Of a DNA stretch of 64,000 nucleotides, positions 3,689 through 62,700 are shown in pieces (position 1 is the stretch's first letter; each line of letters begins with the position of its first letter). A program made the position numbers and the translations under genes. Origin of the DNA: Allosphingosinicella sp. (lineage in GTDB: Bacteria > Pseudomonadota > Alphaproteobacteria > Sphingomonadales > Sphingomonadaceae). Location: positions 1,108-65,107 of the forward strand of contig DATAIU010000077.1 in the NCBI GenBank assembly GCA_036262495.1, given 5' to 3'. The notes below the pieces were generated by a model. The model ran no database searches, was not told the origin of the DNA, and saw nothing but the letters and a program-made list of their open reading frames with translations.

Positions 3689-3696
3689 GCCGCGCC

Positions 3697-4077: not shown

Positions 4078-4601
4078 TCCTCCGGGCCCAGTTCCGGGTC
4101 CAGGTCGCGCGGCCGGATGAAGCGGCGAAGCTCGCCGCTGCCAGGCTTTACCTTCCGCCAGCTGTCGACCGGAACGGCGATCTCGGCCAGAGTGGCGGTC
4201 GGATATTTGAGCGCAACCTCGTCCCGCAACTCTCCTCCCCCTGTCAGCGAGAGCGTGAGCATCTCCAGGCCGGGATTATGGCCGACGATCAGCAGCGTCC
4301 CCGCGTCTGGCGGGGCTTTTCGGACGAGGTCGAGGAGCGTCTCGGGCGACGCGAGGTAGAGCCTGTCGTCGTAGCGCGGCTCGAGCGGGCCGAAAGCCGC
4401 GGCGATTTCCGCGATGGTCTCTACGACGCGCGTCGCAGGGGAGGCGAGGACCGCATCGAAGCGAAGGCCGAGCGCGTGCATCTCGTTCGCCACGGTGCGC
4501 GCCGCCCGCCGCCCACGGGGATTGAGCGGCCGGTCGAAATCGCGCGCGATCGGATCGTCCCAGCCCGATTTGGCGTGGCGCAGCAGCGTCAGGATCTTCA
4601 T
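4074..4601 (-). CDS. histidine phosphatase family protein (SixA-like)
   Basis: N-terminal RHAKS (RHG-type catalytic motif), an internal RGRRAA and the downstream GHNPG motif. Confidence 0.8.
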
Positions 4602-7324: not shown

Positions 7325-7362
7325 TCCACTACATCTGGATCAGCCGGAACGAAAGGGCAACA

Positions 7363-8946: not shown

Positions 8947-8966
8947 ACCGCCTGCCCCGCCTGCCC

Positions 8967-10127: not shown

Positions 10128-10271
10128 GGCAAGTCTCCCAAGAACCCGTGATCGAACCCGTCCGCGAGGGGCGGCGATCCCTGGACCTTATGGCTTGGAA
10201 GAGACGCTTTTTGCGCGATTTTCCGGCCCTTCCTGTGCCACACACGCGCAATTGGACGACATCGGGACGCC

Positions 10272-10757
10272 ATGGCCAGGAAGCTCGACAGTTTCGACAT
10301 CGCCCTGCTCAACCGGCTGCAGGGGGACAATCTCGCGACCAGCGAGGGGCTGGCCGGCGACATCGCTCTTTCTCCCTCGGCCATCGCGCGGCGCTTGCGG
10401 AGCCTGCGCGAGGAAGGGCTGATCGCCGCGGACCGCGCCATCCTCGCCCCGGAGCTGACAGCCGACCGGCTGAGGGCGATCGTTCAGGTGCAGGTCCACG
10501 AACATGCCGAAGAGAAAGGCATAGCTGCGTTGCGCGCGCGCCTCGCGGCGGCGAAGGAGGTGCAGCTCCTCCTCAACGTCGCCGGACCCGTCGATCTGCT
10601 GGTCTTGGTCGTGACCCGCAACATGGCCGCCTTCAACGCCTTTGCCGACAGCCATTTCGCCGCCGACCCCTCCGTGCGGCGCTACGAGACGAGCTTCGTC
10701 AAGGCCGAGATCAAGAATCGCCCGGTCGTGCACCTCGACGGCCAGGACATCCGCTAG
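10272..10757 (+). CDS. Lrp/AsnC family transcriptional regulator
   Basis: N-terminal HTH LDSFDIALLNRLQGDNLATSEGLAGDIALSPSAIARRLRSLREEGLI plus a C-terminal RAM/AsnC_trans_reg-like domain. Confidence 0.85.
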   Translation: MARKLDSFDIALLNRLQGDNLATSEGLAGDIALSPSAIARRLRSLREEGLIAADRAILAPELTADRLRAIVQVQVHEHAEEKGIAALRARLAAAKEVQLLLNVAGPVDLLVLVVTRNMAAFNAFADSHFAADPSVRRYETSFVKAEIKNRPVVHLDGQDIR

Positions 10758-10766
10758 CAATAGGCC

Positions 10767-43345: not shown

Positions 43346-43531
43346 ATGAACTTACCTGCGATCATGCTCGTCGTCCTCATCTTCGGAAGCGTCGCAGGCT
43401 TCGTGATTCTGCCCAGCGTGTGGGGGGCCTGGGCGCGCCGGCGGCGGCGCAAGCATGTCGCGTTCGATCAGAGGCACGGGAATCTGGACCTCTTCGAAGG
43501 GCGGCGCGGGCACGGCGAGCCGGATCAGTGA
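43346..43531 (+). CDS. small membrane protein (61 aa), hypothetical
   Basis: The ATG is preceded by GAGGGT. It has one N-terminal TM helix (LPAIMLVVLIFGSVAGFVILPSVWGAW) followed by RRRRRK. About 84% GC3 by hand count fits coding, and it is the first ORF of the same-strand block. Confidence 0.45.
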   Translation: MNLPAIMLVVLIFGSVAGFVILPSVWGAWARRRRRKHVAFDQRHGNLDLFEGRRGHGEPDQ

Positions 43532-43654: not shown

Positions 43655-44098
43655 ATGTCCGCCCGAGCCCCCGCATCGCGCCTCGCCCGCCTGCGCCCCG
43701 CCGATTGGGCGGCGCTGGCCGAGGCGGGCCTGACGCTCGCGCTCGGGTCGGCGGCGATCAAGCTGCTCTCCTTCCGGCGCGTCGCGGCCTGGGCCTCGAC
43801 GGGAGGGCGGCCGGCGGCCCGAAATGACGCTGCGAAGGTCCGCCGCGTCCGCTGGGCTGTCGAAGCCTGGGCGCGGCGGGTGCCGTGGCGGGCGGTTTGC
43901 TTTCAGCGCGGACTGGCCGTTCATCTCATGCTGCGGCGCCGCGGCATCGCCTCGGTGATGCGTTACGGCGTCGCCGACTTGCCCGACAAGGGGCTTCAGG
44001 CCCACGTCTGGGTCGATGTCGGCGAGGACACCGTGATCGGCGGCGAGGAGGCGCCGAATTTCGCCTGCGTCGCGCGCTTCCCGCCGGAGGCCGCTTGA
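43655..44098 (+). CDS. lasso-peptide-biosynthesis B2-type protein (transglutaminase-like cysteine protease, McjB C-terminal domain-like)
   Basis: 147 aa. The pattern VPWRAVCFQRGLAVHLMLRRRGIASVMRYGV....GLQAHVWVDVGEDTVIGGEE..NFACVARF matches the B2/Transglut_core3 consensus as I know it. The candidate nucleophile is Cys82 (TGC 43898-43900) and the candidate His is His117. Confidence 0.72.
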   Translation: MSARAPASRLARLRPADWAALAEAGLTLALGSAAIKLLSFRRVAAWASTGGRPAARNDAAKVRRVRWAVEAWARRVPWRAVCFQRGLAVHLMLRRRGIASVMRYGVADLPDKGLQAHVWVDVGEDTVIGGEEAPNFACVARFPPEAA

Positions 44099-45900
44099 CC
44101 GACGCCCCCTCTCGCGTCGGTCCCTCTCGCACCGGTCGTGAGGAGGGGCTGGCGGCGCCGCTGCTGCGCTTCGCGGCGGACATCTTCGCCTTCGCGGGGC
44201 GGGGCTGGCCGAAGATCCTCTTTCTTCTCGTCGCCGGCTCCCTCGTCGAGGGCTTCGGCATCCTCCTCCTGGTGCCGCTTCTCGGCATCGTCATCGGCGA
44301 GGCGCCCGCGGGCAGCTGGCTCGGCCGGTTCACCGCATCAGTCCTCGCTTTGTCGCCGAGCGCCTCGCGCTTCGGGCGCATATCCTTTCTGCTCGGCCTC
44401 TTCGCTCTCCTCTTCGCGGTGCGGGCCTGGCTCATCCTGACCCGCGACACGGCCATGGCACGGCTCCAGATCGACTTCATCCAGGACCAGCGCCTCCGCC
44501 TCGTTCGCCTGCTCGCGCGCAGCCGCTGGGACCGGCTGGTCCGCCTCCGCCACGGGCGAGTGACCCATGTGCTCGGCAGCGACCTCGACCAGTGCGCCAG
44601 CGCGGTCTACCTGCTGCTCCAGGCCACGGTGGCGCTGGCCATCCTCGCCGGTCAGCTCATCCTCGCCTTCCTGCTGTCGCCTGCGCTGGCGGGGCTGATC
44701 TTCGTCCTCCTCGGAATCGGGGCACTGACGCTCCGGCCGATCGTCCGGCGCTCGCGCGACCTCGGCGAGTGGGTGCTTGCCTCCAACATGGGGCTGGTCG
44801 TCACCACGACCCAGTTTCTCGGCGGGCTGAAGCTCGCGGTCAGCCAGAACCTCCAGAAAAGCTTTGTCGCCGAGTTCGAGGCCGCACTGAAGCGGGGCCG
44901 GGAGCGGCGCGTCCAGTTCACCCGGCAACGCACCGGCGCGCAGCTGGCCCTGACGGGCGTCGCGGCCGGAGTGGCGGGGCTCACGGTGTTGCTCGGCATC
45001 GGCGTCCTTGGCCTGGCGCCCGCGGCCGCCATCGCGTTCCTCTTCATCCTCGGCCGAATGAACGGTCCCGCGACGCAGCTCCAGACCGGTGCCCAGCACG
45101 TCTTCCACGCACTGCCGGCCTATGGCGAACTCAAGGCCCTGCAGGCCGAACTGACGGCCGCCGACGGCAGCGAAGCGGCCGCCCCGCTCGGCTCTGGGCA
45201 GGACCTTCCGAAGGGGGCTTTGGCCCTGGAGAATCTGTCCTTCTCGCATGCCGCGGGCGGAGCCGAGGCGGCAGGGCTGAACGGGGTCACCTTGACGATC
45301 GAGCCCGGCGAATTCGTCGGTCTCACCGGCCCTTCCGGGGCGGGCAAGACCACCCTCCTCGACCTCATCGTCGGCCTCTACAGTCCCGCCGCGGGCAGGA
45401 TCACGCTCGCCGGGGCGCCTCTCGAAGGGGCGCTGCTCGACCTCTGGCGCGAGAGAGTGAGTTACGTCTCGCAGGACCCGTTCCTGTTCCACGACAGCGT
45501 CCGGCGCAACCTCCTCTGGGCGCGGCCCGACGCGGACGACGAGGCGCTGAGGGAGGCGCTGCGGCGGGCCGGCGCAGAAGATCTGGTCGCGCGCCTCGAC
45601 GGCGGTCTCGACGCCATCGTCGGCGAACGCGGCACCTTGCTTTCAGGAGGGGAGCGCCAGCGCATCGCCCTGGCCCGCGCCTTCATCCGCCGCCCTCGGC
45701 TCCTTCTGCTCGACGAGGCGACGAGCGCGATCGACGTAGCCGGCGAGCGCGTCGTGCTCGAGACGCTGGCACGCGATCCGGATCGCCCTGCCATCATCAT
45801 CGTTTCCCACCGTGCGGAGAGCCTCGCCTTGTGCGACCGGCTGCTCGAACTGAGCGGCGGCCGCATCGTCCAATCCCTTGGCGCAGGAAGGTTTTCCTAG
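44095..45900 (+). CDS. ABC exporter, fused permease/ATPase half-transporter (McjD/MsbA-like)
   Basis: The TTG at 44095 overlaps the B2 stop (TTGA) and there is no in-frame ATG for over 100 codons. It has 6 TM helices, Walker A GPSGAGKT, signature LSGGERQR and Walker B LLLLDEATSAID, with no N-terminal C39 domain. Confidence 0.85.
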   Translation: MTDAPSRVGPSRTGREEGLAAPLLRFAADIFAFAGRGWPKILFLLVAGSLVEGFGILLLVPLLGIVIGEAPAGSWLGRFTASVLALSPSASRFGRISFLLGLFALLFAVRAWLILTRDTAMARLQIDFIQDQRLRLVRLLARSRWDRLVRLRHGRVTHVLGSDLDQCASAVYLLLQATVALAILAGQLILAFLLSPALAGLIFVLLGIGALTLRPIVRRSRDLGEWVLASNMGLVVTTTQFLGGLKLAVSQNLQKSFVAEFEAALKRGRERRVQFTRQRTGAQLALTGVAAGVAGLTVLLGIGVLGLAPAAAIAFLFILGRMNGPATQLQTGAQHVFHALPAYGELKALQAELTAADGSEAAAPLGSGQDLPKGALALENLSFSHAAGGAEAAGLNGVTLTIEPGEFVGLTGPSGAGKTTLLDLIVGLYSPAAGRITLAGAPLEGALLDLWRERVSYVSQDPFLFHDSVRRNLLWARPDADDEALREALRRAGAEDLVARLDGGLDAIVGERGTLLSGGERQRIALARAFIRRPRLLLLDEATSAIDVAGERVVLETLARDPDRPAIIIVSHRAESLALCDRLLELSGGRIVQSLGAGRFS

Positions 45901-45952: not shown

Positions 45953-47368
45953 ATGCCGTGGAGAAGCCTGGGAGCGCTGGGTTGCGCGCTGTCCGTCGTC
46001 GCGGCCGCGACGGCGGCCGCGCAGCCGCGCCCTGGCGCCACGCTGCCGCCGCCTTCGACCAACCCGCTTTCGATAGACGTGTCGAAGGATCCGGTCCTGC
46101 AGCTGGCGCGCAGCCAGGCGGCGCCCGAATTCTTCCGGAGCGTCGTCGCGGCCGCCGTCCAGCACCACCCGGCGACGCAGGAGGCGCGGGCGACCAGTGC
46201 CGAGGCTGAGGCGGTGGTCGACGAGGCGCGCGAGCGCCGGCTCCCGTCGGTCGACCTCAACATCTCATCCTACCGCGTGATCTCGCGCGAATTCTCGAAC
46301 GACCCGCAGAACGTTCTCGAACGCTCGCGGCCTTCGCATCGCACCGACGCGCAACTGACCGTCCAGCAGACCATCTTCGACTTCGGAGCGAGCGCCGAGC
46401 GCGTGCTGGCCGCGGGCGCGCGGCTGCGCGCGGCGGCAGCGGAGGCGGAGCTCAGCGCCGACCGAATCGCTTTGTCGTCGGTCGCGGCCTGGTACGACGT
46501 CTTCGCATACCGGGCGCTGGTGGCGCTCAGCGAATCGTTCGTCGCGGGCCAGAAGGAGTTACGCGCTGCGGTCGAGGAGCGGGTCAGGCTGGGTGCGTCT
46601 GCCCCGGGCGACACGGCTCGCGTGGAGAGCTATCTCGCTTCCGCCCAGACCCGTCTCGCCGTCTTCCGCCGAGGCCTCGCCAATGCCGAGGCGCGCTATA
46701 CCGAGCTGATCGGATCGCCGCCGCCGCCGAGCCTCGAGCGCGCGCCGATCCCGAAGCTTCCGGCGATGACCAAGGAAGCCGCCGAGCTCGCCGCGATGAG
46801 CGGCCCGGAAGCGCGCTCCGCCCAGGCCCTGGCCGATTCGACCCGGCGCGAGGCGAAAGCCGCCAAGGCCGACCGGCTGCCTCAGATCGGGGTCGGAATC
46901 GACGCGGGGCGCTACGGCGTGTTCGAGAATGCCACCGACTACGACGTCCGCGGGCGCGTCACACTGCGCCAGCGCCTGTTCGGCGGCACCGAGGCCCGGG
47001 TCGCTCAGGCCGAGGCAAGGGTCCGCTCCGCCGACGCCCGCGCCGCCCGAATCCGCGACGAGGCCGCGCGCGACGCGTCGATCGCCTGGTCGGACGTGCG
47101 CGCGCTCGAGGAGCAATTGCGGGCGCTGGAGGACAGCTACATCGCCAGCCGGCGCTCGCGCGACGTGCTGATCGAGCGGTTCATCAATTCGCGCGGCAAT
47201 CTGTTCGACGTCGTCGCGGCCGAAGACGCTTATTTCGAGACGGCGACTGCCTACATTAGGGCGCTCAGCGAGCTCGACGCCGCGCGCTACGTTCTCCTTT
47301 CCCGCACCGGCGGGCTGCTGGACGCGCTCGGCATCGACCCCGCCCGGGTTGGAGGCCTGGATGGCTAG
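45953..47368 (+). CDS. TolC family outer membrane efflux protein
   Basis: ATG at 45953 follows GAGGGT. The signal peptide is MPWRSLGALGCALSVVAAATAAA. Two OEP repeats are visible (LPSVDLNISSY..., RLPQIGVGIDAGRY...) with long helical segments. Confidence 0.85.
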   Translation: MPWRSLGALGCALSVVAAATAAAQPRPGATLPPPSTNPLSIDVSKDPVLQLARSQAAPEFFRSVVAAAVQHHPATQEARATSAEAEAVVDEARERRLPSVDLNISSYRVISREFSNDPQNVLERSRPSHRTDAQLTVQQTIFDFGASAERVLAAGARLRAAAAEAELSADRIALSSVAAWYDVFAYRALVALSESFVAGQKELRAAVEERVRLGASAPGDTARVESYLASAQTRLAVFRRGLANAEARYTELIGSPPPPSLERAPIPKLPAMTKEAAELAAMSGPEARSAQALADSTRREAKAAKADRLPQIGVGIDAGRYGVFENATDYDVRGRVTLRQRLFGGTEARVAQAEARVRSADARAARIRDEAARDASIAWSDVRALEEQLRALEDSYIASRRSRDVLIERFINSRGNLFDVVAAEDAYFETATAYIRALSELDAARYVLLSRTGGLLDALGIDPARVGGLDG

Positions 47369-49101: not shown

Positions 49102-50403
49102 ATGAACCAGCACGTCCATATCGAGGACCTGACCGACCGGATTCGCCCGCGCACGGCGTCGAACGTCCTGCTCTGGGTCGTCGCGATCTTCTTCATCGCC
49201 TTCTTCGCCTGGGCGGCGCTCACGGAGCTCGACAGGACGGTGCGCGGCCAGGGGCGGGTCATCGCCAATTCGCAGCTCCAGACCATCTCCAACCTCGAGG
49301 GGGGAGTCGTCGAGGCGATCCTCGTCCGGGTTGGACAGGTGGTGAAGGCCGGGCAGGAGCTCGTCCGGCTCGATCGCACCGCGACGGGGGCCGAACTCGG
49401 CAGCGGCGAGTCGTCGGCCAATTCGCTGATGGTGAAGATCGCTCGACTGCAGGCCGAAGTGGCAGGGCGCGAGCCGGCCTATCCGGCGGTCGGCGATCCC
49501 AATGCGGTCAACCAGATCCGCATCGAGCAGGCCCTGCACGCGGCGCGCATGTCGGAGCTGGCGAGCCTGATCTCGGCGGGACAGGCGCGGATCAACCAGG
49601 CCGGCCGCGCGGTCGCCGAGGCGGAGGCGATGTACCAGGCGAAGGTGACGGCGCGCGAGGCGCGGGTCGACGAGCTGCGCATGATCCGCCGGCTCGTCGA
49701 GAAGGGCGTCGAGCCCCGCCTGTCGCTGATGCAGGCGGAGAGCGCCTGGTCGATCGCGGTGAGCGAGGCGACGGCCGCCGCCGCCGCGGTCTCCCGCGCC
49801 CGTTCCGCCGTCTCTGAGGCTCAGTCGACGCTCTCCCAGCAGCGCCAGGACTGGCGCTCGCTCGCCGCCACCGAGCTGGCCACCGCGCAGGCGGAGCTCG
49901 GAGCCCGGCGGCCGACGCTTCCGGCGCTCGCCGAGAGGGTGGCCCGGACCGAGGTGCGAGCGCCGCTCGCCGGGCGCGTCAACCGGGTGCTGGTGACCAC
50001 GGTCGGCAGCGCCGTCGGGCCGGGCGCCCCCCTGGTCGAGCTGGTCCCGTCGGAGGAGACTTTGCTGATCGAGACCCTGGTCCGCCCCAAGGACATCGCC
50101 TTCGTTCGCATGGGCCAGAAAGCGAAGGTCGGAATCACCGCCTACGACCCGTCGATCTACGGCTCGCTGGAGGGAGTCGTCGTCGCCATCTCGCCCGACG
50201 CGGTCGTGAACGAGAAGACCGGCGAGAGCTTCTACATGGTCCAGGTGCGGACCAGGACGAAGGGGCTCGTCCACAACGGCCGGGCCATGCCGATCTCCAC
50301 CGGAATGATCGCCGACGTGTCGCTGCTCGGCGACAAGCGGACCATCCTCGACTACATCCTGACGCCGATCACCCGCCTCAAGGAAGACGCGCTACGAGAA
50401 TGA
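49102..50403 (+). CDS. HlyD family type I secretion periplasmic adaptor
   Basis: It starts 1 nt after the ABC stop. It has an N-terminal TM helix, the lipoyl-like motif GRVIANSQLQTISNLEGGVV, a long coiled-coil, RTEVRAPLAGRVN and C-terminal G.I..G.RT.LDY.L.P. Confidence 0.9.
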   Translation: MNQHVHIEDLTDRIRPRTASNVLLWVVAIFFIAFFAWAALTELDRTVRGQGRVIANSQLQTISNLEGGVVEAILVRVGQVVKAGQELVRLDRTATGAELGSGESSANSLMVKIARLQAEVAGREPAYPAVGDPNAVNQIRIEQALHAARMSELASLISAGQARINQAGRAVAEAEAMYQAKVTAREARVDELRMIRRLVEKGVEPRLSLMQAESAWSIAVSEATAAAAAVSRARSAVSEAQSTLSQQRQDWRSLAATELATAQAELGARRPTLPALAERVARTEVRAPLAGRVNRVLVTTVGSAVGPGAPLVELVPSEETLLIETLVRPKDIAFVRMGQKAKVGITAYDPSIYGSLEGVVVAISPDAVVNEKTGESFYMVQVRTRTKGLVHNGRAMPISTGMIADVSLLGDKRTILDYILTPITRLKEDALRE

Positions 50404-50566: not shown

Positions 50567-53500
50567 ATGGCATTGACGGTTACGCGTTCGACGACGCTGT
50601 TCAACGATTTGGACGGCGACAGCGCCTTCGATCCGGGCGAGATAGTCCTCACCAAGATCCGCCTCACCAACGGCGGCACCCCCGTCACCAACGTCTCGGT
50701 GACCGACACGCTGAACGGCGTCACCGTCGTCCCCGGTTCGGTGAAGGTCACGCCGATCGCGGTCGACGACAATTTCAACATCACCGGCAACACGCCGATC
50801 ACCCTGACCTTCGCCCAGCTCCTCGGCAACGACGTCGACCCCGACGGCCTCAACTCCGGCCTCACCGTCACCAACGTCACCAGCGCCTCCGCCGGAAGCA
50901 GCTTCACGGTCGACTACAACGCCCAGACGGTCACCTTCACGCCCCAGACCGGCCTCGACATCGGCCAGACCGCGTCGTTCCAATATACGATCACCGACGC
51001 GCAGGGCCTGCAGAGCGTCTCTACCGGAATCGTCACCCTGAACATCACCGACGTCGTCTGGTATGTCGACAACACCGCGAGCGCGGCCGGCGCCGACGGC
51101 TCCTACCTCCACCCCTTCACCAGCCTGACGCCGCTGAATGCGGTCGGTGACGTCGATTCCGCCAACGAGACGATCTTCGTCTACCACAATGGCGGCAACT
51201 ACACGGCCGGGATCGCCCTCGAGGCCGGCCAAAAGCTGATCGGCGACGGCGTCGCGTTCAGCGCCAACAACAAGTCCATCGGCGGCACGCTGAGCAGCCC
51301 CGGCGGCGCCGACGTCGCGACCAACGCGGTCATCTCGCAGACCACCGGCACGATCCTCACCCTCTCCACCGACAACACGGTCAAGGGCCTGACCTTCGAT
51401 TCCAACGGCTCAACCGTGGTCGGGATGGCCGACAACGGCGGAAGCGTGACGACCGCGGCCGGCACCCTGCTCGTCTCCAACGTCAGCTTCACCGGCACCG
51501 GCCAGGCCGTCGACATCGACGCCGGCGGCAATCTCAACGTCACCATCGATTCGCTGACCTCGACCGGCGCCGGAACCAACATGCAGGGCGTCCAGCTCGC
51601 CGGAACGGCGTCGAGCGGCACCGGCCTGATCTCGGGCAGCTTCACGGTGACGGGCGGCAACATCCAGAGCGCCTCGGGCGACGACTTCCTAATCGGTGGC
51701 TCGGGCCCGAGCAGCGGCGGCACCATCGCGGTGACCTATGCCGGAACGCTCGGCACCTCGATCAACGGCTCGGCGCTCCGCATCGCCGACCGCCTGGCCG
51801 GCTCCGGCGACATCAACTTTACCGGCAACATCTTCCAGAATTCGGGCGCGAGCAGCGCGACGGCCGGCCTCTCCTTCTCGAACATCGCCGGCGGCAACAT
51901 CAACCTCACCGGCACCAAGACGATCCTGGTCACCGCCGGCAGCCAGCACGCCATCTCGATCAGCGTGATGAGCGCGGGCACGATCAACCTCACCAACGGC
52001 GCGATCGACATCGACTTCCAGAACGCGGCGAGCGGCAACGCCTTCTCGGTCGGCAGCCTGTCGGGTGGCTCGGTCAACGTCTCGACCGCCGCCGACATCG
52101 ACTTCACCGGCACCGCCAGCGGCCGCGGCATCAGCATGGCGAGCGTCAGCGGCGGCTCGGTCAACTTCACCGGCGGCAACCTCACCATCAACACGCTCGC
52201 CGGCACGGGCATTGCCGACGACGCCGCCGGAACCGGCGGGCAGCTCAACATATCCGGGGCAGGCAACGCCGTCGCCTCGACGACGGGCAAGCTCGTCGAC
52301 CTCAACAATATCGGCACGACCGGCATTGCGCTGAGCAGCGCGTCGAGCACCGGCATCGTGGCGGGCGACGCGATCCTCCTCAACAATGTTGACGCGGTGA
52401 GCGCTGGGAGCGTCTCGATCACCACCGTCAACATCGCCGGCGGCACGAGCGCCGGGGCGGACGGGATCCGGGTCCAGGGCGGCGGCACGGCGAACGTCTC
52501 GCTCGGCACCGTCACGGTGACGAACGCCGGCCAGGACGGCGTCGAGGTGAACGGCGCCGGCAACGGCACCGTCACGATCACCAGCCTGACCACGACCGGA
52601 GCGACCTCTAACGGCCTCAACGTCACCAGCAGCGACAACAGCGTCACCGTCAACGGCGGGACGATCGACGCGGCCGCGGCCGGAAACGCCGTCCTCGTCT
52701 CCGGCGGGACGGGGGCGGTGACGATCGCGGCCGGACTTACCAAGACCACGGCGGGGAACGTGCTCGAGGTCAGCAACCACAGCAGCGGCACGATCGCCGT
52801 CAGCGGCGCCGTCTCGGCCACGGGCGGCCAGGACAATGGCATATTGCTCACGAACAACACGGGCGGTCAGATCAACCTCACCGGCAACGTGACCCTGACG
52901 ACCGGCGCCTTCGCCGGCCTGACTTTCACCAACACCGCGGGGACCGGCGCGACAGTCACGCTCTCGGGCGGCAACCTCAACCTCGACACGACGAGCGGCA
53001 CCGGCGTCAACGCGACGAGCACCACGATCGGCGCGGGCACGCTCAACGTCACCGGCGCGAACAACAGCATCGCCGCGACGAGCGGGCGCGCGATCAACGT
53101 CGACGGCGTCACCCTCAACATGACCCTGCACGACGTCGGCACCACCGGCGGCGGCACGACGACGGGCGTGTACCTCAAGAATACCGGCGCGGGCGGCCAG
53201 TTCGTCGTCACGGGCACGGGCTCGACCGCCGGTTCGGGCGGCACGATCGCGAACGTCGGCGGAACCGACAACAACGTGCAGACCGGCATCGGCATGTATC
53301 TGGAGAACGTCTCGAACGTATCCCTCGCCAACCTGATCTTCGGCGCGACCGGCGCCACGGCGGGCAATTTCGGCATACGCGGCGAGAACGTGACCAACTT
53401 CACGCTCACCGATTCCGAGTTCCGCGGCAATTTCGGCGACAATGCCGGCGCGGACGAAGGCACGATCCGCTTCGGCACGCAGAGCACGTCGACGGGCCTC

Positions 53501-56500
53501 AAGGGCACGGCTTTGTTCCAGGGCAACGTCTTCAACCCGTCGAACGCGAGCAGCGGCGCGGTCGAGGATACGCTCGGCATCTACGTCTACGGCAACAACA
53601 CGCTGAACCTGACGATCAAGGACAGCGCGAACGACCAGTCGATCTTCGGTGTCAACAACGCCGCGTCGGGCGGCGACGGCATCGTCATCGACAATGGCGG
53701 CACTTCGAACGTCACGGCCCTGATCGACGGCGTCACCTTCAACGGCGCGCGCAGCGACCTTCTGCAGGCGACGATGAACGGCACCGGCGCCACGCAGACC
53801 ATCACAATCCAGAACAACACCTTCGCAAACTCGATGGTGACCAGCCTCGGCGGCGGCATCAGCGTCGGCGCCACCGGCAGCAACTACAACCTCAACTACA
53901 CGATCCAGGGCAACACGTTCACGGGCGCCCGGTCAGGCGCGGTCATCCACGGCATGGTGAATGGCGCGGGCACGGTGAAGGGACTGATCCTCAACAACAT
54001 AATCGGCACCGACGACGGCGCCCTTGGCGGCATCGGCGGCACCAACGGGATGATCAACGGCTCGGGCATCTTCGCCGGCATCGACGGCACCAGCGGCACC
54101 GTGAATTACGCGCTTCGCATCGAGGGCAACCAGATCCGCGACATCGCGAGCGGCATCGGCGGCGGTATCTTCCTGCGCTCGAACATAACGCCCGGCACCG
54201 GCGGCCGTCTCGAGGCGACGATCAAGAACAACACCGTCGAGGAGATCAACAACACGGCGGGGCAGAACGGCCAGGGCCTGTTCGGCTCGCTCTATCTGCA
54301 GGTCGGCGGCGCGACGACGACCGACATCGGACTCCTCGGGGTGGAGCTCCAGAACAACAGGTTCGACAATAGCGGATCGACCTACGGCAACGCGATCATC
54401 ATCGACCAGGTGTCGGCGGCGGCGCACGTGATCGTCCCCGGCTTCGGCGGACCTTTCGACGGCATTGCGGCCGAAACGCCGCTGACCAACTACTGGCAGG
54501 GCAAAGGCAACGTCCTAGTAAACGGCACCGCGGCGAACTCGGCGACCAAGGTGGACGCTCTGACCGCGCAGGGCATCCAGAACACCGCCTTCGTCCTCGC
54601 CGTGCCGATCCTCGAGGCGCCGCAGGCGAATAACGGCTGGGAGATAGACGATCCGCTCGCTCCGGCGATCGCCGAGAAGGGCCCCGACGCCAATGTGGTC
54701 GACACGAGCGGCGAGAGCGGCGGCGCCGCCTCGACCGACGGCGGCTCGACGGGCGACGCCGGCGGATCGACCGCGACGGGCGGCGCGACCCCCGGACCGG
54801 CGCCGACCGTCGTCGACGACGGCGTTCTCAGCCAGGCCGAGCTCGACCTCATCGTCGCCGCGGCGATCCAGCGCTGGGCCGATGCGGGCGCGAGCGAGGA
54901 GCAGATCGCGGCGATGCGCGCCGTCGACATCAACGTCGTCGACATGGCCGGGATCTATCTCGGCGATTCGACGCAGGGCGTGATCAACGTCGACAGCGAC
55001 GGCGCCGGCAAGGGCTGGTTCATCGACGCGACGCCGGGCGAGGACAGCGAGTTCTCCGGCGCCGGCAATCCGCTGACCGCGGCCGCCGGCGGCGGCGCCG
55101 AGGGCAGGATCGACCTTCTGACGGTCGTCATGCATGAGCTCGGCCACCAGATCGGCCTCGACGACATCTACCAGAATGCCGAGGCCGACGAGTTGATGTA
55201 CGGCTACGTCAACGCCGGCGAGCGGCGGCTTCCGCAGGCGGACGACCTGGCCGGAGCCGACGGCACCCTCGGCGTCAGCAACGGCTATGCGCTGAGCCCG
55301 GTCATCGTCGGGACGATCCCGGCGAACAAGATCGTCGACGTCTATTTCCAGGCGACGATCGACGGCCAGACCGACAAGTTCATCGTCAATCCCGCCAACA
55401 CGTCGACGGCGAATTACGACCCGTCGCTCACCGCGACGGCCAACGAGACGATGACGCTCGACTCGCTCACGCTCGGCAACCGGGTGTTCAACGACCTCAA
55501 CTTCAACGGCTTGTACGACAGCGGCGAGGGCGTGGTCGGGGTGATGCTCGACATCTACGCCGACACCAACGACAGCGGCGGCTGGGACGCGGGCGACGCC
55601 CTGCTCGGCAACACTACGACGCTCGCGGGCGGCCTCTACAGCTTCGCCGGACTCGCGCCGGGGGACTATATCGTCGTCGTCAGGGCATCCAACTTCAACT
55701 CCGGCCAGCCGCTCTTCGGGCTTCAGTCGGTCGCCGGCGGGACGGATCCCGACGACAATATCGACAATGACGACAACGGCGTCGCCATCGCGGGCGGCGC
55801 CTTCGCGTCGCAGACCATCACGCTCGCCTACAACAGCGAACCGACCACCGACGGCGACGCCGACGCCGACACCAACCTGACGCTCGACTTCGGCTTCAAG
55901 GGCAACCAGGCGCCCGACGCGGTCAACGACAGCGTCACCGTCGCCGAGGATTCGGGCGCGAACGACCTGACGTCGCAGCTTCTTTCGAACGACACCGATC
56001 CGGATGGGGACACGCGGACGATCACGGGCGGCACCAACGGCGCGAACGGGACGGTCAGCGTCAGCGCCGGCGTCCTCACCTACACGCCGAACGCCAATTA
56101 CAACGGCTCGGACAGCTTCACCTACACGATCAGCGACGGCCAGGGTCATACCGACACCGCCACCGCGACCGTCACGGTGACCGCGGTCAACGATGCGGTG
56201 ACGACCAGCGCGCCGCTCACCGCGACGGTCGGCGAGGACGCATCGAACGTCGCAATTACCGGCCTCTCGATCTCCGACGTCGACGCGACGCTGGCGCCGG
56301 CCGGGGTCTACGAGGTCACACTGAGCGCTACCCACGGCCTGCTGACGCTGACGACGATCACCGGCCTCACCTTCACCGGCGGCGACGGCACGTCCGACGC
56401 GACGATGACCTTCCACGGCACGCTCGCCGCCATCAACACCGCGCTTGCCACCGCGAAATACACGCCCGATGCCAATTACAACGGCGCCGCGGCGATCCAG

Positions 56501-59392
56501 ATCAGCGCCACCGACACGTTCGGCGCCGTGGTCGCGACCGGCACCGGCTCCGCCACCAACGACACGGACACGGTCGCGGTCACCGTCACTTCGGTCAACG
56601 ACGCGCCGACCGGGCAGAACGGCAACGCCGGCACGACCGAAGGCACGACCTACGTCTTCGGCCTGGCCGACTTCGCGACCGGCTTCGACGACCCGAACGA
56701 CAACCCCGACAACGTCTTCGCCGGTATCAAGATCGCCGCTCTGCCGTCGGCCGGGACGTTGAAGCTGAACGGCGTCGCGGTGAGCGTCGGCGACGTCATC
56801 ACGGCGACCCAGCTCAACAACGGCAACTTCACCTATGACGCGCCGGCGGGCTCGGCCGGCACCTCGCCGAGCTTCAGCTATTACGTAATGGACGATGGCG
56901 GCACCGCCGGCGGCGGCGTCAACACGGCGCTCAGCACGAACAGCTACACGATGAACATCGCCGCCGCGAACGCTTCGCCCCAAATCGACCTCAACGCGGG
57001 AGTCGCGGGGATCGACAATGCGGCGAACTACACCGAGAACGCCTCCGCGGTCCTTCTCGCCACGGGCCTCACGATCGCCGACGTCGACGATACCGACCTC
57101 GAGGGCGCCACAGTCTCGGTCGGCACGGGGTTCGTCGCCAACAAGGATGCGCTGACCGTCAACGGTCTCGCATCCGGAACGATCAACGGCATCACCTTCA
57201 GCTACAATGCCGCGACCGGCGTGCTGACCCTGACGGGCACCGCGTCGCTTGCGACCTACGAAGGCGTGCTCCGCCAAGTGGGTTTCGCCTCGACTGCCGA
57301 CGCCGGCGCCAGCCGCACGATCGACTGGAAAGTCAACGACGGCAGCACGAACAGCGCGGTCGCGCACACGGTCGTCACGATCGCCGAGATCAACGACGCA
57401 CCGGTCAATTCGCTCGGCGGCACGATCGGCACCGGCGAGGATGCTGTCGACGCCTGGCTCAGCGGAATGTCGATCTCCGATCCGGACGCCAATCCGGCGA
57501 CCGACCTGGTGACCGTCGTCTTCCACGTCGCCAACGGAACGCTCGACATCCGCACCGACGTCGTGGGCGGCGTCACCAACGCGCAGGTGAGCGGGGACGA
57601 TACCGGCACGGTAACCGTCACCGCGACCCTGAACGCGATCAACGCGACCCTCGCGGCGTCGAACGGGCTCACCTACACGCCGAACCTCAACTACAACGGA
57701 AGCGACACGCTCACGGTCACCACCAACGACCAGGGCCACAACGGAAGCGACCCAGGCCTCACCGGGAACGGTACCAGCGAAGAGGACGTCGACACCCGCA
57801 CGATAACGATCTCGGCGGTCGACGATCCCGCGGTCGCGAACGACGACAATGCGTCGACCCCGGAGAACGCGACGAAGGTCATCACGGTCCTCGCCAACGA
57901 TTCCGACGTCGACGGGCCGGCGCCGCAGGTGACGCAGATCGAGGGCACCGCCGTCGTCGCGGGCCAGACGGTCACGCTCGCGTCGGGCGCGAAGGCGACG
58001 CTGAACGCCGACGGCACCATCACCTACGACCCGAACGGCAAGTTCAACTGGCTGGCCGACAACACGTCCGGCGCGGTCAACACCTCGGCTCAGGACAGCT
58101 TCGCCTACACGGTGACCGGCGGCGACACGGCAATTGTGACCGTCACCGTGAACGGCGTCGCCGGGCCGGGCGACCTGCTCTACGGCGACAGCGGCAACAA
58201 CACGATCACGGGCACGCCGAACGTCGACATCTTCATGCTCCAGCAGGGCGGCAGCGACACCGCCTATGGCCTCGGCGGCAGCGACGGCTTCTACATGGGC
58301 GGCGCGCTCGACGCGCTCGACTATCTGGACGGCGGCGACGGCAGCAACGACCAGCTCATCCTGCAGGGCAATTACGGCGCCCAGCTCACGCTCGGCGCGA
58401 ACAACCTGCTCAATATCGAGGTGCTCGCTCTGGTCTCGGGGACCAACACGCAGTTCGGCGATACGGCGAACAACCTTTACGATTACAATCTGAAGTCGGT
58501 GGATGCGAACGTCGCCGCCGGACAGCGCCTGGTGATCGACGCGACGGCGCTCAAGGCCGGCGAGGACTTCACCTTCGACGGTTCGGCCGAGACGAACGGC
58601 GCCTTCACCATCGGCGGCGGCAACGGGACCGACACGCTGACCGGCGGCGCGGGGGCGGACCTGTTCCTCTTCCACAGCCAGGGCCAGTGGGGCTCCAGCG
58701 ACTCGGTCAACGGCGGCGGCGGCCAGGACGAGCTGGCGCTGCGCGGCAATTACACCGTCACGTTCGGCGCCACCGCGATGACCGGGATCGAAGTCATCTC
58801 GCTCCTCTCGGGCCAGATCGCGCGGTTCGGCCATGTCGAGGGGAATTTCAATTACAACATCACGACGAACGATGCGAACGTCGCCGCCGGGCAGCGCATG
58901 GTGATCGACGCCGGGCAGCTGACTGCGACCGAAACGGTGCAGTTCAACGGCAGCGCCGAGACCAACGGCTTCTTCTGGATCGCCGGCGGCGCCGGCAACG
59001 ACGTGCTTATCGGCGGCGCAGGCAACGACCTGCTCATCGGGGGCGGCGGCGTCGACGCCCTCACTGGCGGAAACGGCAACGACACCTTCCGCTACCGCTC
59101 GGTGTCGGAGTCGACGGCGGCCAGTCCGGATAGCATCGGCGACTTCAAGCTCGGCGACGTGATCGACCTGTCGCGGATCGACGCGAACACCAACCTCGCC
59201 GGCGACCAGGCGTTCAGCTTCGTCGGCAACGCCGCGTTCAGCAATACGGCGGGGGAGCTGAGGTTCCAGCTGGTCAGCGGTCAGCAATGGCTGGTCCAGG
59301 GCGACGTCAACGGCGACGGCGTCGCCGACTTCGCTTTGCTCGTCACGACGCCCGACAATAACCCGATCACGAGCGGCGACTTCCTGCTCTAG
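50567..59392 (+). CDS. giant (2941 aa) T1SS-type secreted RTX protein: N-terminal Ig/cadherin-like modules, about 1100-aa parallel beta-helix-like region, embedded metzincin motif, SdrD-B/CNA-B-like domain, tandem cadherin/VCBS-like modules, C-terminal RTX repeats
   Basis: ATG at 50567 follows GAGGGG. No Sec signal peptide is present. Repeated ..DNDTDPDGD..TYTPNANYNGSDSFTY.. modules occur. RTX nonapeptides are GGAGADLFLF and GGAGNDVLIGGAGNDLLIGGGGVDALTGGNGNDTF. A serralysin-like C-terminal block (DVIDLSRIDANTNLAGDQAFSFVG...GDVNGDGVADFALLV) ends in D-F-L-L. The T1SS genes are adjacent. Confidence 0.9.
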   Translation: MALTVTRSTTLFNDLDGDSAFDPGEIVLTKIRLTNGGTPVTNVSVTDTLNGVTVVPGSVKVTPIAVDDNFNITGNTPITLTFAQLLGNDVDPDGLNSGLTVTNVTSASAGSSFTVDYNAQTVTFTPQTGLDIGQTASFQYTITDAQGLQSVSTGIVTLNITDVVWYVDNTASAAGADGSYLHPFTSLTPLNAVGDVDSANETIFVYHNGGNYTAGIALEAGQKLIGDGVAFSANNKSIGGTLSSPGGADVATNAVISQTTGTILTLSTDNTVKGLTFDSNGSTVVGMADNGGSVTTAAGTLLVSNVSFTGTGQAVDIDAGGNLNVTIDSLTSTGAGTNMQGVQLAGTASSGTGLISGSFTVTGGNIQSASGDDFLIGGSGPSSGGTIAVTYAGTLGTSINGSALRIADRLAGSGDINFTGNIFQNSGASSATAGLSFSNIAGGNINLTGTKTILVTAGSQHAISISVMSAGTINLTNGAIDIDFQNAASGNAFSVGSLSGGSVNVSTAADIDFTGTASGRGISMASVSGGSVNFTGGNLTINTLAGTGIADDAAGTGGQLNISGAGNAVASTTGKLVDLNNIGTTGIALSSASSTGIVAGDAILLNNVDAVSAGSVSITTVNIAGGTSAGADGIRVQGGGTANVSLGTVTVTNAGQDGVEVNGAGNGTVTITSLTTTGATSNGLNVTSSDNSVTVNGGTIDAAAAGNAVLVSGGTGAVTIAAGLTKTTAGNVLEVSNHSSGTIAVSGAVSATGGQDNGILLTNNTGGQINLTGNVTLTTGAFAGLTFTNTAGTGATVTLSGGNLNLDTTSGTGVNATSTTIGAGTLNVTGANNSIAATSGRAINVDGVTLNMTLHDVGTTGGGTTTGVYLKNTGAGGQFVVTGTGSTAGSGGTIANVGGTDNNVQTGIGMYLENVSNVSLANLIFGATGATAGNFGIRGENVTNFTLTDSEFRGNFGDNAGADEGTIRFGTQSTSTGLKGTALFQGNVFNPSNASSGAVEDTLGIYVYGNNTLNLTIKDSANDQSIFGVNNAASGGDGIVIDNGGTSNVTALIDGVTFNGARSDLLQATMNGTGATQTITIQNNTFANSMVTSLGGGISVGATGSNYNLNYTIQGNTFTGARSGAVIHGMVNGAGTVKGLILNNIIGTDDGALGGIGGTNGMINGSGIFAGIDGTSGTVNYALRIEGNQIRDIASGIGGGIFLRSNITPGTGGRLEATIKNNTVEEINNTAGQNGQGLFGSLYLQVGGATTTDIGLLGVELQNNRFDNSGSTYGNAIIIDQVSAAAHVIVPGFGGPFDGIAAETPLTNYWQGKGNVLVNGTAANSATKVDALTAQGIQNTAFVLAVPILEAPQANNGWEIDDPLAPAIAEKGPDANVVDTSGESGGAASTDGGSTGDAGGSTATGGATPGPAPTVVDDGVLSQAELDLIVAAAIQRWADAGASEEQIAAMRAVDINVVDMAGIYLGDSTQGVINVDSDGAGKGWFIDATPGEDSEFSGAGNPLTAAAGGGAEGRIDLLTVVMHELGHQIGLDDIYQNAEADELMYGYVNAGERRLPQADDLAGADGTLGVSNGYALSPVIVGTIPANKIVDVYFQATIDGQTDKFIVNPANTSTANYDPSLTATANETMTLDSLTLGNRVFNDLNFNGLYDSGEGVVGVMLDIYADTNDSGGWDAGDALLGNTTTLAGGLYSFAGLAPGDYIVVVRASNFNSGQPLFGLQSVAGGTDPDDNIDNDDNGVAIAGGAFASQTITLAYNSEPTTDGDADADTNLTLDFGFKGNQAPDAVNDSVTVAEDSGANDLTSQLLSNDTDPDGDTRTITGGTNGANGTVSVSAGVLTYTPNANYNGSDSFTYTISDGQGHTDTATATVTVTAVNDAVTTSAPLTATVGEDASNVAITGLSISDVDATLAPAGVYEVTLSATHGLLTLTTITGLTFTGGDGTSDATMTFHGTLAAINTALATAKYTPDANYNGAAAIQISATDTFGAVVATGTGSATNDTDTVAVTVTSVNDAPTGQNGNAGTTEGTTYVFGLADFATGFDDPNDNPDNVFAGIKIAALPSAGTLKLNGVAVSVGDVITATQLNNGNFTYDAPAGSAGTSPSFSYYVMDDGGTAGGGVNTALSTNSYTMNIAAANASPQIDLNAGVAGIDNAANYTENASAVLLATGLTIADVDDTDLEGATVSVGTGFVANKDALTVNGLASGTINGITFSYNAATGVLTLTGTASLATYEGVLRQVGFASTADAGASRTIDWKVNDGSTNSAVAHTVVTIAEINDAPVNSLGGTIGTGEDAVDAWLSGMSISDPDANPATDLVTVVFHVANGTLDIRTDVVGGVTNAQVSGDDTGTVTVTATLNAINATLAASNGLTYTPNLNYNGSDTLTVTTNDQGHNGSDPGLTGNGTSEEDVDTRTITISAVDDPAVANDDNASTPENATKVITVLANDSDVDGPAPQVTQIEGTAVVAGQTVTLASGAKATLNADGTITYDPNGKFNWLADNTSGAVNTSAQDSFAYTVTGGDTAIVTVTVNGVAGPGDLLYGDSGNNTITGTPNVDIFMLQQGGSDTAYGLGGSDGFYMGGALDALDYLDGGDGSNDQLILQGNYGAQLTLGANNLLNIEVLALVSGTNTQFGDTANNLYDYNLKSVDANVAAGQRLVIDATALKAGEDFTFDGSAETNGAFTIGGGNGTDTLTGGAGADLFLFHSQGQWGSSDSVNGGGGQDELALRGNYTVTFGATAMTGIEVISLLSGQIARFGHVEGNFNYNITTNDANVAAGQRMVIDAGQLTATETVQFNGSAETNGFFWIAGGAGNDVLIGGAGNDLLIGGGGVDALTGGNGNDTFRYRSVSESTAASPDSIGDFKLGDVIDLSRIDANTNLAGDQAFSFVGNAAFSNTAGELRFQLVSGQQWLVQGDVNGDGVADFALLVTTPDNNPITSGDFLL

Positions 59393-59711: not shown

Positions 59712-62700
59712 ATGGTCAGCACGACGCTCGTGATCAACGAATTCGCTGTCGCCGGTGCGAGCGCCGCCGATGAATATGTCGAGATCAAGAACATCAGCGG
59801 CCAGGAGATCGACCTCACAGGCTACCGGATCGTGTACCGTTCCTCGGCGGGAACGACAGACGTCGCTGTTTTCGCGTTCCCGGCGGGCACGAAGATCGCC
59901 GCGGGCGGATATCTTCTGATCACCAATTCGTCGGGCTACGCAGGAGCCGTGGCCGGCGATTTTACCTGGACCACAGGGAGCACGGGCACGTTTGCTGCTG
60001 CCGCGGGAGGACTCGCTATCCGCAACGGCGCCCTCAACACCGGGACGATCGTCGACTCGGTGGCTTACGGAACGGCGACAAACGCATTTCGAGAAGGCGG
60101 CGCGAACGCTCCCGCTCCTTCCTCGGCGCAGGCGGCGCTGCGGAGCCAGGATACCGACAGCAATTCGACCGACTTCGCGGTCGGAGCGCGTGCTCCGCAA
60201 AATTCCAGCACAACGCCGGGTCCCATAGGTCAGACGCAGACCGTTCAGTTCAACCCGGTCTCGGTGACTCACGACGAGGGCAATAGCGGCAGCACGGCCT
60301 ACGTCTTCACGGTCACCCGGACCGGCGGGACCACCGGCCAGCTCGATTTCTCCGGCACGATCGCGGCGGGGACGACGAACGGCGCCGATTATGTCGGCGG
60401 CACCGCGCCGACGACGTTCAGCGGCTCCATCGCGGCCGGGCAAACGAGCGCCACGGTCACGGTCAACGTCCAGGGCGATTTCACGGTCGAATCGGCCGAG
60501 GCCTTCACGCTCACGCTCACCAACGCGACCAACGCCGACGGAACCGTCACCGTCTCGATCGGCGCGAACAGCGGCGCCACCGGAAACATCACCAACGACG
60601 ACGGCCCTGGTACGATCAACATCGACGACGTCGTCATCGCCGAGGGCGATTCGGGGACGACCTCGGGAAGCTTCGCCCTGCACCGCGTCGGCGGCGCGAC
60701 CGGCACCGTTAGCGTCGATTACACGATCACCCTTCCGGGCGGCGCCGGCGGCGCCGACGGAACGGACGTCACCGGCCCGCTGACCGGCACGGTCACCTTC
60801 CTCGAGGGCCAGACCGGCGCCTCGGTGCCCTTCACGATCAACGGCGACGTCACCAACGAGCCGAACGAGACCTTCACCGTCGCGCTCGCAAACGCGACGG
60901 GCGGCGCCTCGATCGGCGACGGCTCGGCGACCGCGACGATCACCAACGACGATGCCCCGCCGACCCTCTCGATCGGCGACGCGACCTTGGTCGAGGGCAA
61001 TGGCGGGATCACCTATCTCGTCTTCACGGTGAGCCTCTCCAAGGTGTCGCTCGATCCGGTCACCGTCGATTTCGCGACCGCGAACGGAACCGGGACGGCC
61101 GGGAGCGACTATCTGGCGCTAAGCGGCCAGGTCGGCTTCGCCGCCGGCGAGCTGACCAAGACCGTTTCCGTCGCGGTCGTCGGCGACACCGCCATCGAGG
61201 CCAACGAAACGCTCACCGTCGGCCTCTCCAACCCGGTCAACGCGACGATCCTGGACGGAAGCGGCCTCGGCACGATCACCAACGACGACACGCTCGCTTA
61301 TCATTTGCTCGCCGCGGGTCCTCTCTCCGAGAACTGGACCGACACGAGCCGCATCGCCGCCAACGACGACTGGAGCAAGATCGCCTCGATCCGCGGCTAT
61401 CTCGGCAACACCGATCCCGACGGCGCCGCGACCGGCGTCGATCCGCGGACCATCACCGGCGCCAATCCGGGAGACGTAGACGTCATCGCGAACCTCACGG
61501 CCACGACCAGCACCTCGGGCGGCGTCGGCGAGTTCCACCTCGCCGATCCCACCATCGGCCTGCAGGGCTCGGGCACCGCCGACGCGCCGAGCATCGTCCT
61601 TTTCCTCGACGCCAGCGGCCGCACCGACATCCGCCTGACCGCCAACCTTCGCGACATCGACACCACCGCCGACAATGCCGCCCAGCAGGTCGCGGTCCAG
61701 TATCGCACCGATCCGAACGGTGCCTGGACCAACGCGCCCGGCGGCTATTTCGCCGACGTGACCACGGGCGGCACGGCGACGCAGGTGACGGCGCTCGACG
61801 TCACGCTCCCGGCCGACGCCAATTATTCGCCGACGCTGCAGATCCGGATCCTCACCACCAACGCGGCCGGCAACGACGAATGGGTCGGCGTCGACGACAT
61901 CGTCGTCACGAGCGCACAGGGGAGCCTGCCGAGCTACGGAATCGCCGACGCCGCCGCTTATGAAGGCACCGGAGCCTCGCCGACCCCCATCAGCTTCACC
62001 GTGACCCGCGTCGGCGATTCGAGCGCGGCCGGGACGGTCGATTACAGCGTCACCTTCGCGGGCGGCGGCTTCAGCGCGGGCGCCTCGGACCTTTCCTCGC
62101 CGCTGGCCGGCACGGTCAGCTTCGCTCCCGGCGAGACCTCGAAGATTCTGACCCTCGACATCGTCGCCGACTCGACGCCGGAGGCCGACGAGGCATTCAC
62201 CGTCGCCCTCTCCAATCCGTCGTCGGGCAACGTCACCCACCCGGCCGCCACCGGCACGATCGTCAACGACGACGGCGCGCCGCCCTACGTCACCGTTTCC
62301 GACGTCAGCAAGGACGAGGGGAATTCGGGCACGACCAGCTTCGCCTTCACCGTGACGCGAACCGGCGGCACGGGCGCGTTCAGCGTCGATTACGCGACCC
62401 TCGACGGCACCGCCTCGGCCGGGGACGATTATGTCGCGGCCGCCGGCACCCTCAATTTCCTCGCCGGCGAGAATTCGAAGACGGTGACGGTCACCGTCAA
62501 CGGCGACACGATTCCCGAGCTTCGCGAGACCTTCTCGCTCCAGCTCTCCAATCCGACCGGATTTGCGGTGCTCGCCGATCCGGCCGGCACGGCGACCATC
62601 CTCAACGACGACCTCACCGCGATCTACGTCATCCAGGGCAGCGGCAACTCGTCGCCGCTCGTCGGCCAGGAGGTCCGCACCCGCGGCATCGTCACGGCGG

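Follow-up and report, generated by a model that had tools for sequence, protein, structure and literature searches.

The window analysed here is a 64,000-nucleotide stretch of Allosphingosinicella sp. (GenBank assembly GCA_036262495.1, contig DATAIU010000077.1, positions 1,108 to 65,107), in which the gene of a lasso-peptide B2-type cysteine protease (B2) and that of an ATP-binding cassette (ABC) exporter are found directly upstream of the tolC gene of a type I secretion system (T1SS) with a giant RTX adhesin. The pair is well supported, by comparison of related sequences, as a vertically inherited remnant of a kinase-type lasso cluster, of which the window holds B2 and the exporter gene D only, and continued function of the pair is supported by its sequence conservation. 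The main point of interest is that a leader peptidase of RiPPs (peptides made by the ribosome and modified after translation) is maintained without a cyclase across a whole clade. We favour, at a probability of about 0.5, a functional remnant in which B2 would act as leader endopeptidase and the product would be exported by the co-translated ABC protein through the adjacent TolC, with the substrate encoded at an unlinked site.

The 147-aa open reading frame (ORF) was assigned to the B2 proteases in an initial annotation made from the letters alone, and its translation matches the sequence quoted there exactly. Profile searches bear this assignment out, with 78.5 bits against PF13471 (Transglut_core3, cut-off 26) and 77.1 bits against NF033537 (lasso_biosyn_B2, cut-off 33), and an identical record from an Allosphingosinicella metagenome-assembled genome (MAG) carries the name 'lasso peptide biosynthesis B2 protein'. 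Cys82 and His117 were 100% conserved among 71 homologues (43 T1SS-linked and 28 cyclase-linked), and position 131 carries an acidic residue (Glu or Asp) in 97% of the T1SS-linked homologues and in 75% of the cyclase-linked ones; Glu131 is likely the third catalytic residue. In the AlphaFold model (pLDDT 79), Cys82 is placed at the N-terminus of helix 82–95, while His117 and Glu131 are placed in the adjacent strands 113–122 and 125–132, so that the modelled residues adopt a papain/transglutaminase arrangement. Foldseek comparison of this model with the PDB gave nothing at E≤0.001, leaving the fold without independent confirmation, and a PDB sequence search gave chance matches only (E of at least 0.05). 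No signal peptide was apparent by eye (no predictor was run), the N-terminus being the usual B2 helical region, and the Pfam and NCBIfam matches were limited to PF13471 and NF033537, with no LapG-family model among them. By family, as judged from these profiles and residues, the ORF is a lasso B2-type cysteine protease, and its predicted activity is most likely still that of a leader-type endopeptidase.

The TGA stop codon of B2 (44096–44098) overlaps the TTG start of the ABC gene at 44095, with GGAGG 4 nt upstream of the TTG, and the translational coupling of B2 to the 601-aa ABC protein proposed for positions 44095–44098 was thereby confirmed. In all 12 loci that have both genes, the two either overlap or are at most 11 nt apart, and the 4-nt coupling and the Shine-Dalgarno sequence are preserved between the window and its closest relatives (L004–L006) at 78–80% protein identity. 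The ABC protein scored 120 bits against ABC_tran and 25.7 bits against ABC_membrane, the latter slightly under the cut-off (a divergent transmembrane domain, TMD), and its Walker A, signature, Walker B and H-loop motifs are all intact in the sequence. HepA was the best NCBIfam match, far under its cut-off, and full-length matches in the PDB (ABCB and ABCC proteins) were driven by the nucleotide-binding domain (NBD). No C39 domain was found in this protein or in the second ABC protein of the window. The earlier label 'McjD-like' holds by context, beside B2, and not by sequence, the TMD being without a match to solved exporters. The orthology of the exporter to lasso-cluster D proteins was visible among relatives: it is 45–58% identical to the ABC protein following B2 in the complete clusters L033, L043, L050 and L055, orthologues follow B2 in L043, L050, L055, L048 and L159, and identity to the L004 and L006 proteins is 84%.

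The rest of the lasso pathway was sought in the window with queries from related complete clusters, namely the cyclase (C), PqqD, the kinase, NTP_transf_5 and the precursor (A), using tblastn and, for all of these except NTP_transf_5, profile hidden Markov models. Across all 64 kb and in all six reading frames no match was obtained, in agreement with the initial annotation, which had seen no precursor, PqqD-like RiPP recognition element (RRE, B1) or cyclase there.

For comparative analysis, 150 related loci (labelled L001 upward) were used, 80 of which were found by a B2 profile scan of species-representative genomes and annotated by tblastn, Pfam and NCBIfam. In 40 of the 80, B2 (53–71% identical to that of the window) is located directly upstream of tolC, a T1SS ABC gene and hlyD, usually followed by a giant adhesin gene, and synteny of B2, TolC and T1SS without a cyclase, raised as a question by the initial annotation, is thus recurrent. 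A divergent PF14907 (NTP_transf_5) gene is found about 100 bp upstream of B2 in 39 of these 40 loci. No C, PqqD or kinase gene was detected in the flanks of the 40, of which 30 have at least 8 kb on both sides; a weak Asn-synthase-like match in L039 was rejected, as it sits in an exopolysaccharide locus and is not a lasso cyclase. An ABC gene beside a T1SS-linked B2 was found only in the sublineage of the window (the window and L004–L006) and in L007. The clade-wide partner of the orphan B2 is thus NTP_transf_5 and not ABC, and the initial annotation had missed the origin of the pair in a lasso cluster.

The other 40 species-representative loci form a second group, 28 of which carry an Asn-synthase-like C with the lasso cyclase NF033535 as best NCBIfam match. 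B2 homologues of ≤56% identity to that of the window occur mostly in complete kinase-type (paeninodin/SyanA-like) lasso clusters. The cyclase-linked loci hold a PqqD gene with lasso_PqqD as best match, an HprK-like kinase gene, and often a PsmN-like NTP_transf_5 and an ABC gene. Their precursors are 40–60 aa long, with the leader motif W-x-x-P-x-[LV]-x-x-[IM]-x-A-G-x-A-E, an invariant Asp 7–9 residues after G/A/S and a C-terminal Ser. The full set of a Ser-ending precursor, B1, C, B2 and kinase was found in L043, L048, L050, L055, L071, L073 and L155; in L159, whose precursor was not searched for, the genes for C, B2, D, kinase and PqqD are present.

The descent of the pair was judged from identities and a neighbour-joining tree. 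B2 of the window is 78–80% identical to that of L004/L006, 65% to that of L007 and 52–55% to those of L043, L050 and L055, and the corresponding values for ABC are 84%, 64% and 53–58%. The two proteins therefore diverge in parallel from the complete clusters, as is expected if the pair was inherited vertically. In the tree, 41 of 43 T1SS-linked B2 sequences group in a single clade (Allosphingosinicella/Sphingomonadales) that lies inside the cyclase-linked diversity, the other two (L035 and L039) branching apart with L036 and L049. Intermediate stages exist, as judged from the complete lasso clusters that adjoin a T1SS in L071 and L073 and from L007, where NTP_transf_5 is followed by B2, ABC and TolC; the sublineage of the window has B2, ABC and TolC without NTP_transf_5. 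From these comparisons, a kinase-type lasso cluster, for a peptide phosphorylated on its C-terminal Ser, once adjoined the tolC-T1SS-adhesin locus. The genes for A, B1/PqqD, C, HprK-like kinase and PsmN-like nucleotidyltransferase vanished from this locus, and B2 and D stayed behind at the head of what is likely a single B2-D-tolC-T1SS ABC-hlyD unit. The pair is therefore inherited vertically from a lasso cluster and is not a newly assembled protease-exporter module.

To assess whether the remnant is maintained, dN/dS was calculated by the NG86 method. Values for B2 of the orphan clade were 0.26 in the core and 0.37 over the whole gene, against 0.16–0.24 and 0.23–0.39 in the cyclase-linked groups, and orphan-clade B2 is thus under purifying selection like cluster-embedded B2, with no visible relaxation of constraint. 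The B2 ORF was intact in 40/40 species-level and 15/15 metagenome loci, and NTP_transf_5 of the orphan loci retains its KG...DxD motif. Given the invariant Cys and His and the purifying selection, B2 is not decaying.

According to the reading that we favour, B2 would still remove the N-terminal leader of a small peptide, and the product would leave the cell by way of the translationally coupled ABC protein and the TolC encoded directly downstream, the pair working as a split peptidase-containing ABC transporter (PCAT) on a substrate from outside the 64-kb window. Part of the association of lasso-family genes with T1SS genes may be functional: a lasso D exporter depends on a TolC, and the ABC gene of the window directly precedes tolC. 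Two sub-cases appear roughly equal: the product may be a true lasso peptide, made with unlinked B1, C and A genes, or no more than a linear peptide freed of its leader. Several observations weigh against this reading. For split B2 enzymes, engagement of the leader depends on B1. Neither the window nor the surroundings (about 10 kb) of any T1SS-linked B2 yielded a substrate, an RRE or a cyclase, the precursor-like gene of L035/L151/L152 apart. The TMD half of ABC gave no match at E≤0.01 among PDB sequences, McjD included. ABC is missing from 39 of the 40 T1SS-linked loci (only L007 has it), so that an export-coupled role cannot be general, and the constant clade-wide partners of B2 are NTP_transf_5 and the T1SS operon. 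Finally, among the best 120 matches listed for each of the C- and precursor-profile searches of a large protein collection, none was located on the contigs of 3.87 (a chromosome), 1.58, 1.43, 1.27, 0.74 and 0.46 Mb that carry a T1SS-linked B2.

A more specific form of the favoured reading, in which a full A/B1/C/kinase set elsewhere in the genome makes a true phosphorylated lasso peptide, is conceivable but rather doubtful. The purifying selection on B2 and the preserved KG...DxD motif of NTP_transf_5 would fit continued function in such a pathway. Cyclase clusters lacking B2, kinase and NTP_transf_5 within 10 kb, and often ABC too, do exist (L154, L156–L158), so B2 and C can be unlinked, and in one T1SS-linked sublineage (L035/L151/L152) a precursor-like gene was found 8–9 kb upstream of NTP_transf_5/B2-TolC, with no cyclase, RRE or kinase within 10 kb of it. 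On the other side, among the 80 species representatives no genome with a T1SS-linked B2 locus also yielded a cyclase-linked one, the large T1SS-linked contigs gave no C- or precursor-profile match among those listed, and the B2-less cyclase clusters belong to another subfamily. These clusters are compact and widespread, with genes for PqqD, a 244-aa protein without Pfam matches, a 57–59-aa precursor ending in Ser and the cyclase (L154 8380–13771; L156 8343–11941; also L157 and L158). There was no evidence that they are the missing half of the pathway, their C being closest to that of L077 and L155; the ABC protein of L154, the only one of them with an ABC gene, is 40% identical to that of the window. 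The precursor-like peptide of the sublineage mentioned above (L035 822–1034; L151 10001–11378; L152 1347–2682) is conserved (…NWVQPQVSRLDTASAQAGPGDLIADATEFS) and its gene is followed by a TPR/2OG-Fe(II)-oxygenase (PF13759) gene.

It was also considered that B2 has left lasso chemistry altogether. For the clade as a whole, B2 may have been kept for a cyclase-independent job once the lasso pathway was lost, mostly together with the PsmN-like nucleotidyltransferase. As lead gene of a T1SS/giant-adhesin operon, it would act in the cytoplasm, for example on the adhesin, on a component of the T1SS or on a linear peptide exported by it; we consider this unlikely. Hardly different in our estimate, and likewise improbable, is the closely related proposal of exaptation, where B2 (with NTP_transf_5 or, here, ABC) would be a T1SS/adhesin accessory, a cytoplasmic protease acting on the adhesin or on a T1SS component. 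Since loci found via B2 are biased toward B2, T1SS operons were sampled independently with a TolC query against metagenome contigs. In the close clade (TolC at least 68% identical), B2 was found upstream in 15 of 16 informative operons, 13 of them with NTP_transf_5, the exception being L114. The TolC start lies 40–110 bp past the B2 stop, counting the Pro-rich N-terminus of TolC, and from this spacing B2 heads the operon, as it does in the 40 of 80 species-representative loci. Exaptation would further account for the purifying selection on B2 with no cyclase nearby, for the recurrence of the lasso-family/RTX-T1SS association in rearranged form (L071, L073, L102 and L061/L063/L065) and for the finding that adhesins of the AdhN type occur beside a T1SS almost only where B2 is present, although this co-occurrence may reflect shared ancestry in one clade. 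However, about 35 sister T1SS operons, more distant though clearly orthologous (TolC 46–66% and T1SS ABC about 75% identical), lack B2, NTP_transf_5 and an adjacent adhesin gene, and the close L114 also lacks B2 and NTP_transf_5; the T1SS therefore does not require B2. The adhesin starts directly in a structural domain that is conserved, with nothing resembling a leader or a precursor motif, and B2, with no apparent signal peptide, fits the lasso-type model only and not the LapG family.

That the genes are non-functional leftovers of cluster decay, possibly kept by a T1SS promoter upstream of B2, is quite improbable. All other pathway genes are missing locally, including B1, which B2 normally requires, and the varied content of the remnants (NTP_transf_5 and B2, B2 and D, or all three) is what stepwise loss predicts. 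Against decay are the intact ORFs in all loci, the invariant Cys and His, a dN/dS far below 1 that does not exceed that of complete clusters, and the coupling and Shine-Dalgarno sequence shared by the window and L004–L006; constraint on a promoter only would leave the protein sequence unconserved. Orphan immunity, with ABC as a self-protection pump against the lasso peptides of neighbours and B2 riding along, is very improbable, because ABC is dispensable (missing in 39/40 T1SS-linked loci) and B2 is the conserved part, even though D exporters such as McjD confer immunity and complete kinase-type clusters are common in related soil Sphingomonadales.

The pair was compared with four kinds of characterised systems. 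Kinase-type clusters include those of paeninodin (PadeKACB1B2D), ThcoK, SyanK of Sphingobium yanoikuyae and pseudomycoidin (PsmK/PsmN), and the B2 and ABC proteins of the window are orthologous to B2 and D of this type in related Sphingomonadales. The kinases PadeK, ThcoK and SyanK phosphorylate the C-terminal Ser of the precursor, and PsmN modifies the phospho-Ser (PMC9266682). In contrast to these clusters, the 64 kb of the window has no A, B1, C, kinase or nucleotidyltransferase gene, and the pair sits in a T1SS/adhesin operon. The microcin J25 system likewise combines a Cys-His transglutaminase-like leader protease with a half-size ABC exporter needing TolC, for which tolC directly follows in the window. 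However, B2 of the window is a stand-alone protein of 147 aa without the fused RRE half of McjB, the TMD of ABC has no detectable similarity to McjD, and there is no equivalent of McjA or McjC.

With PCATs (CvaB, PCAT1) there is a functional analogy, in that a cysteine protease of papain-like fold is made together with an ABC exporter directed toward TolC, the genes of the window being translationally coupled. The protease is, however, separate and transglutaminase-like (PF13471) and not a fused C39 domain, no double-glycine substrate was found, and no dedicated membrane fusion protein gene lies beside the ABC gene. The LapG/LapD-LapA systems resemble the window in having a cysteine protease gene of transglutaminase-like fold beside a T1SS and a giant RTX adhesin. 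LapG, in contrast, is periplasmic and of a different family, B2 of the window showing no signal peptide on inspection by eye (as above, with no predictor run), and the adhesin of the window lacks a recognisable N-terminal retention/cleavage module, while sister T1SS operons have no protease. The initial annotation had offered three options, a satellite of a cluster elsewhere, a PCAT-like minimal module and recruitment to the T1SS/adhesin system, and none of them is proven: gene coupling fits the second, for which neither substrate nor RRE was found, and operon position fits the third, which is opposed by the sister operons and L114 without B2 and by the adhesin without a leader. No paper on the arrangement came up in literature searches that combined PF13471/PF14907 with type I secretion, or RTX adhesins with orphan lasso proteases.

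The features of the window are listed in Table 1. The tolC gene begins 52 nt past the stop codon of the ABC gene, and no terminator-like site was found from the ABC gene through hlyD, including before tolC; as read from the sequence, B2, D, tolC, the T1SS ABC gene and hlyD are likely one transcription unit, with B2 and D first. The T1SS ABC protein covers only profile positions 125–694 of TIGR03375 and so lacks the N-terminal C39-like domain, a short form also found in sister operons without B2. The giant RTX adhesin, presumed to be the T1SS cargo, has cadherin-like/Big_9 domains and a C-terminal RTX/serralysin-C region. Its N-terminus, MA(V)..T.TR.S.LF.D.DGDG, is conserved in the clade and starts at the Met, and no leader- or precursor-like motif and no LapA-like retention/cleavage module was found there. 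An exact look-up gave no record of either the adhesin or the HlyD protein. The ORF that follows, with Lamin-tail and Calx-beta domains, may encode another surface protein or another cargo of the T1SS.

Table 1. Genes of the B2-ABC pair and of its surroundings, in positions of the window.
Feature	Position	Strand	Basis and remarks
61-aa ORF, N-terminal hydrophobic helix and basic stretch	43346–43531	+	also called in L004 and L006, beside glucokinase
Lasso B2-type (Transglut_core3) cysteine protease, 147 aa	43655–44098	+	PF13471, NF033537, conserved residues, AlphaFold topology, dN/dS
ABC exporter, TMD-NBD half-transporter, 601 aa; orthologue of lasso-cluster D exporter	44095–45900	+	ABC_tran, ABC_membrane, identities, junction
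TolC-family outer-membrane factor, signal peptide	45953–47368	+	PF02321 143.6 bits; TIGR01844 134 bits, under cut-off
LssB-type T1SS ABC permease/ATPase, 583 aa	47349–49100	+	TIGR03375 737 bits (cut-off 693)
HlyD-family T1SS periplasmic adaptor	49102–50403	+	TIGR01843 323 bits
Giant RTX adhesin, ~2940 aa from MALTVTRS	50567–59392	+	Pfam matches on last 1000 aa
Second giant ORF, >1429 aa, Lamin-tail and four Calx-beta domains	59712–63998, runs off end	+	directly after RTX adhesin

Two candidates for a small peptide gene near B2 were rejected. The 61-aa ORF upstream is of membrane type and stays by glucokinase in L004 and L006, where a 7.8-kb adhesin gene separates it from B2; it is probably a real small membrane protein unlinked to B2. 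That adhesin gene (L004 1879–9738, L006 1780–9645, both on the minus strand) encodes a second RTX adhesin of about 2620 aa and is divergent, upstream of B2; it is missing in the window, where B2 is 123 bp from the 61-aa ORF. A peptide gene hidden between B2 and TolC was also dismissed, as the gap is taken up by the TolC signal peptide and a Pro-rich N-terminal extension. In L002 and most of the main subclade (around 10500–10800), TolC has a Pro/Thr/Ser-rich linker of about 80 aa after the signal peptide (…PPPPTPTPPYIPE…), which TolC of the window lacks.

Further observations were made in the related loci. In L061 (Sphingomonas, 3395–10387; alike in L063, L065 and L078), a gene for a 2330-aa RTX protein lies between B2 and the genes of a precursor and an ABC exporter. 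In L102 (1832–7377), the gene of a giant RTX protein is followed by a precursor-like gene (…LAWSPPRLTRFRAGEAEVGGNPINPEGAFATGS), tolC and the T1SS ABC gene, so that a lasso-type precursor stands directly before the T1SS operon, with B2 and NTP_transf_5 on the other side of the RTX gene. A 47-aa ORF in L039 (7461–7604, plus strand; MRTLDTNELKFVSGAGKKPNYGGGPGNSGPG…) has the look of a double-glycine-type leader and lies about 2.4 kb upstream of NTP_transf_5/B2-TolC. The tolC, T1SS ABC and hlyD homologues of L001/L021 (10700–15200, on the 3.87-Mb chromosome of a long-read MAG) are split into several frames, probably by assembly frameshifts rather than as pseudogenes. In two Gemmatimonadales MAGs (L075 and L076, 9974–12373), the B2 frame runs on for 800 aa across a cyclase homologue, which may mean that B2 and C are fused or that a stop codon was missed.

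Lasso B2 proteases are generally seen as working only in partnership with a cyclase and an RRE. In the present clade, selection has kept B2 for long with no cyclase or RRE nearby, in about 40 species-level genomes and on many soil metagenome contigs, always at the head of a tolC-T1SS-adhesin operon. Either lasso pathways are split in a way missed by cluster-based mining (RODEO/antiSMASH-style), or a RiPP leader peptidase has a role outside lasso biosynthesis; a cyclase-independent job, if true, would be the first non-lasso function for the B2 RiPP protease family. For annotation, the pair in the window is best described as a lasso-cluster remnant and not as a biosynthetic gene cluster.

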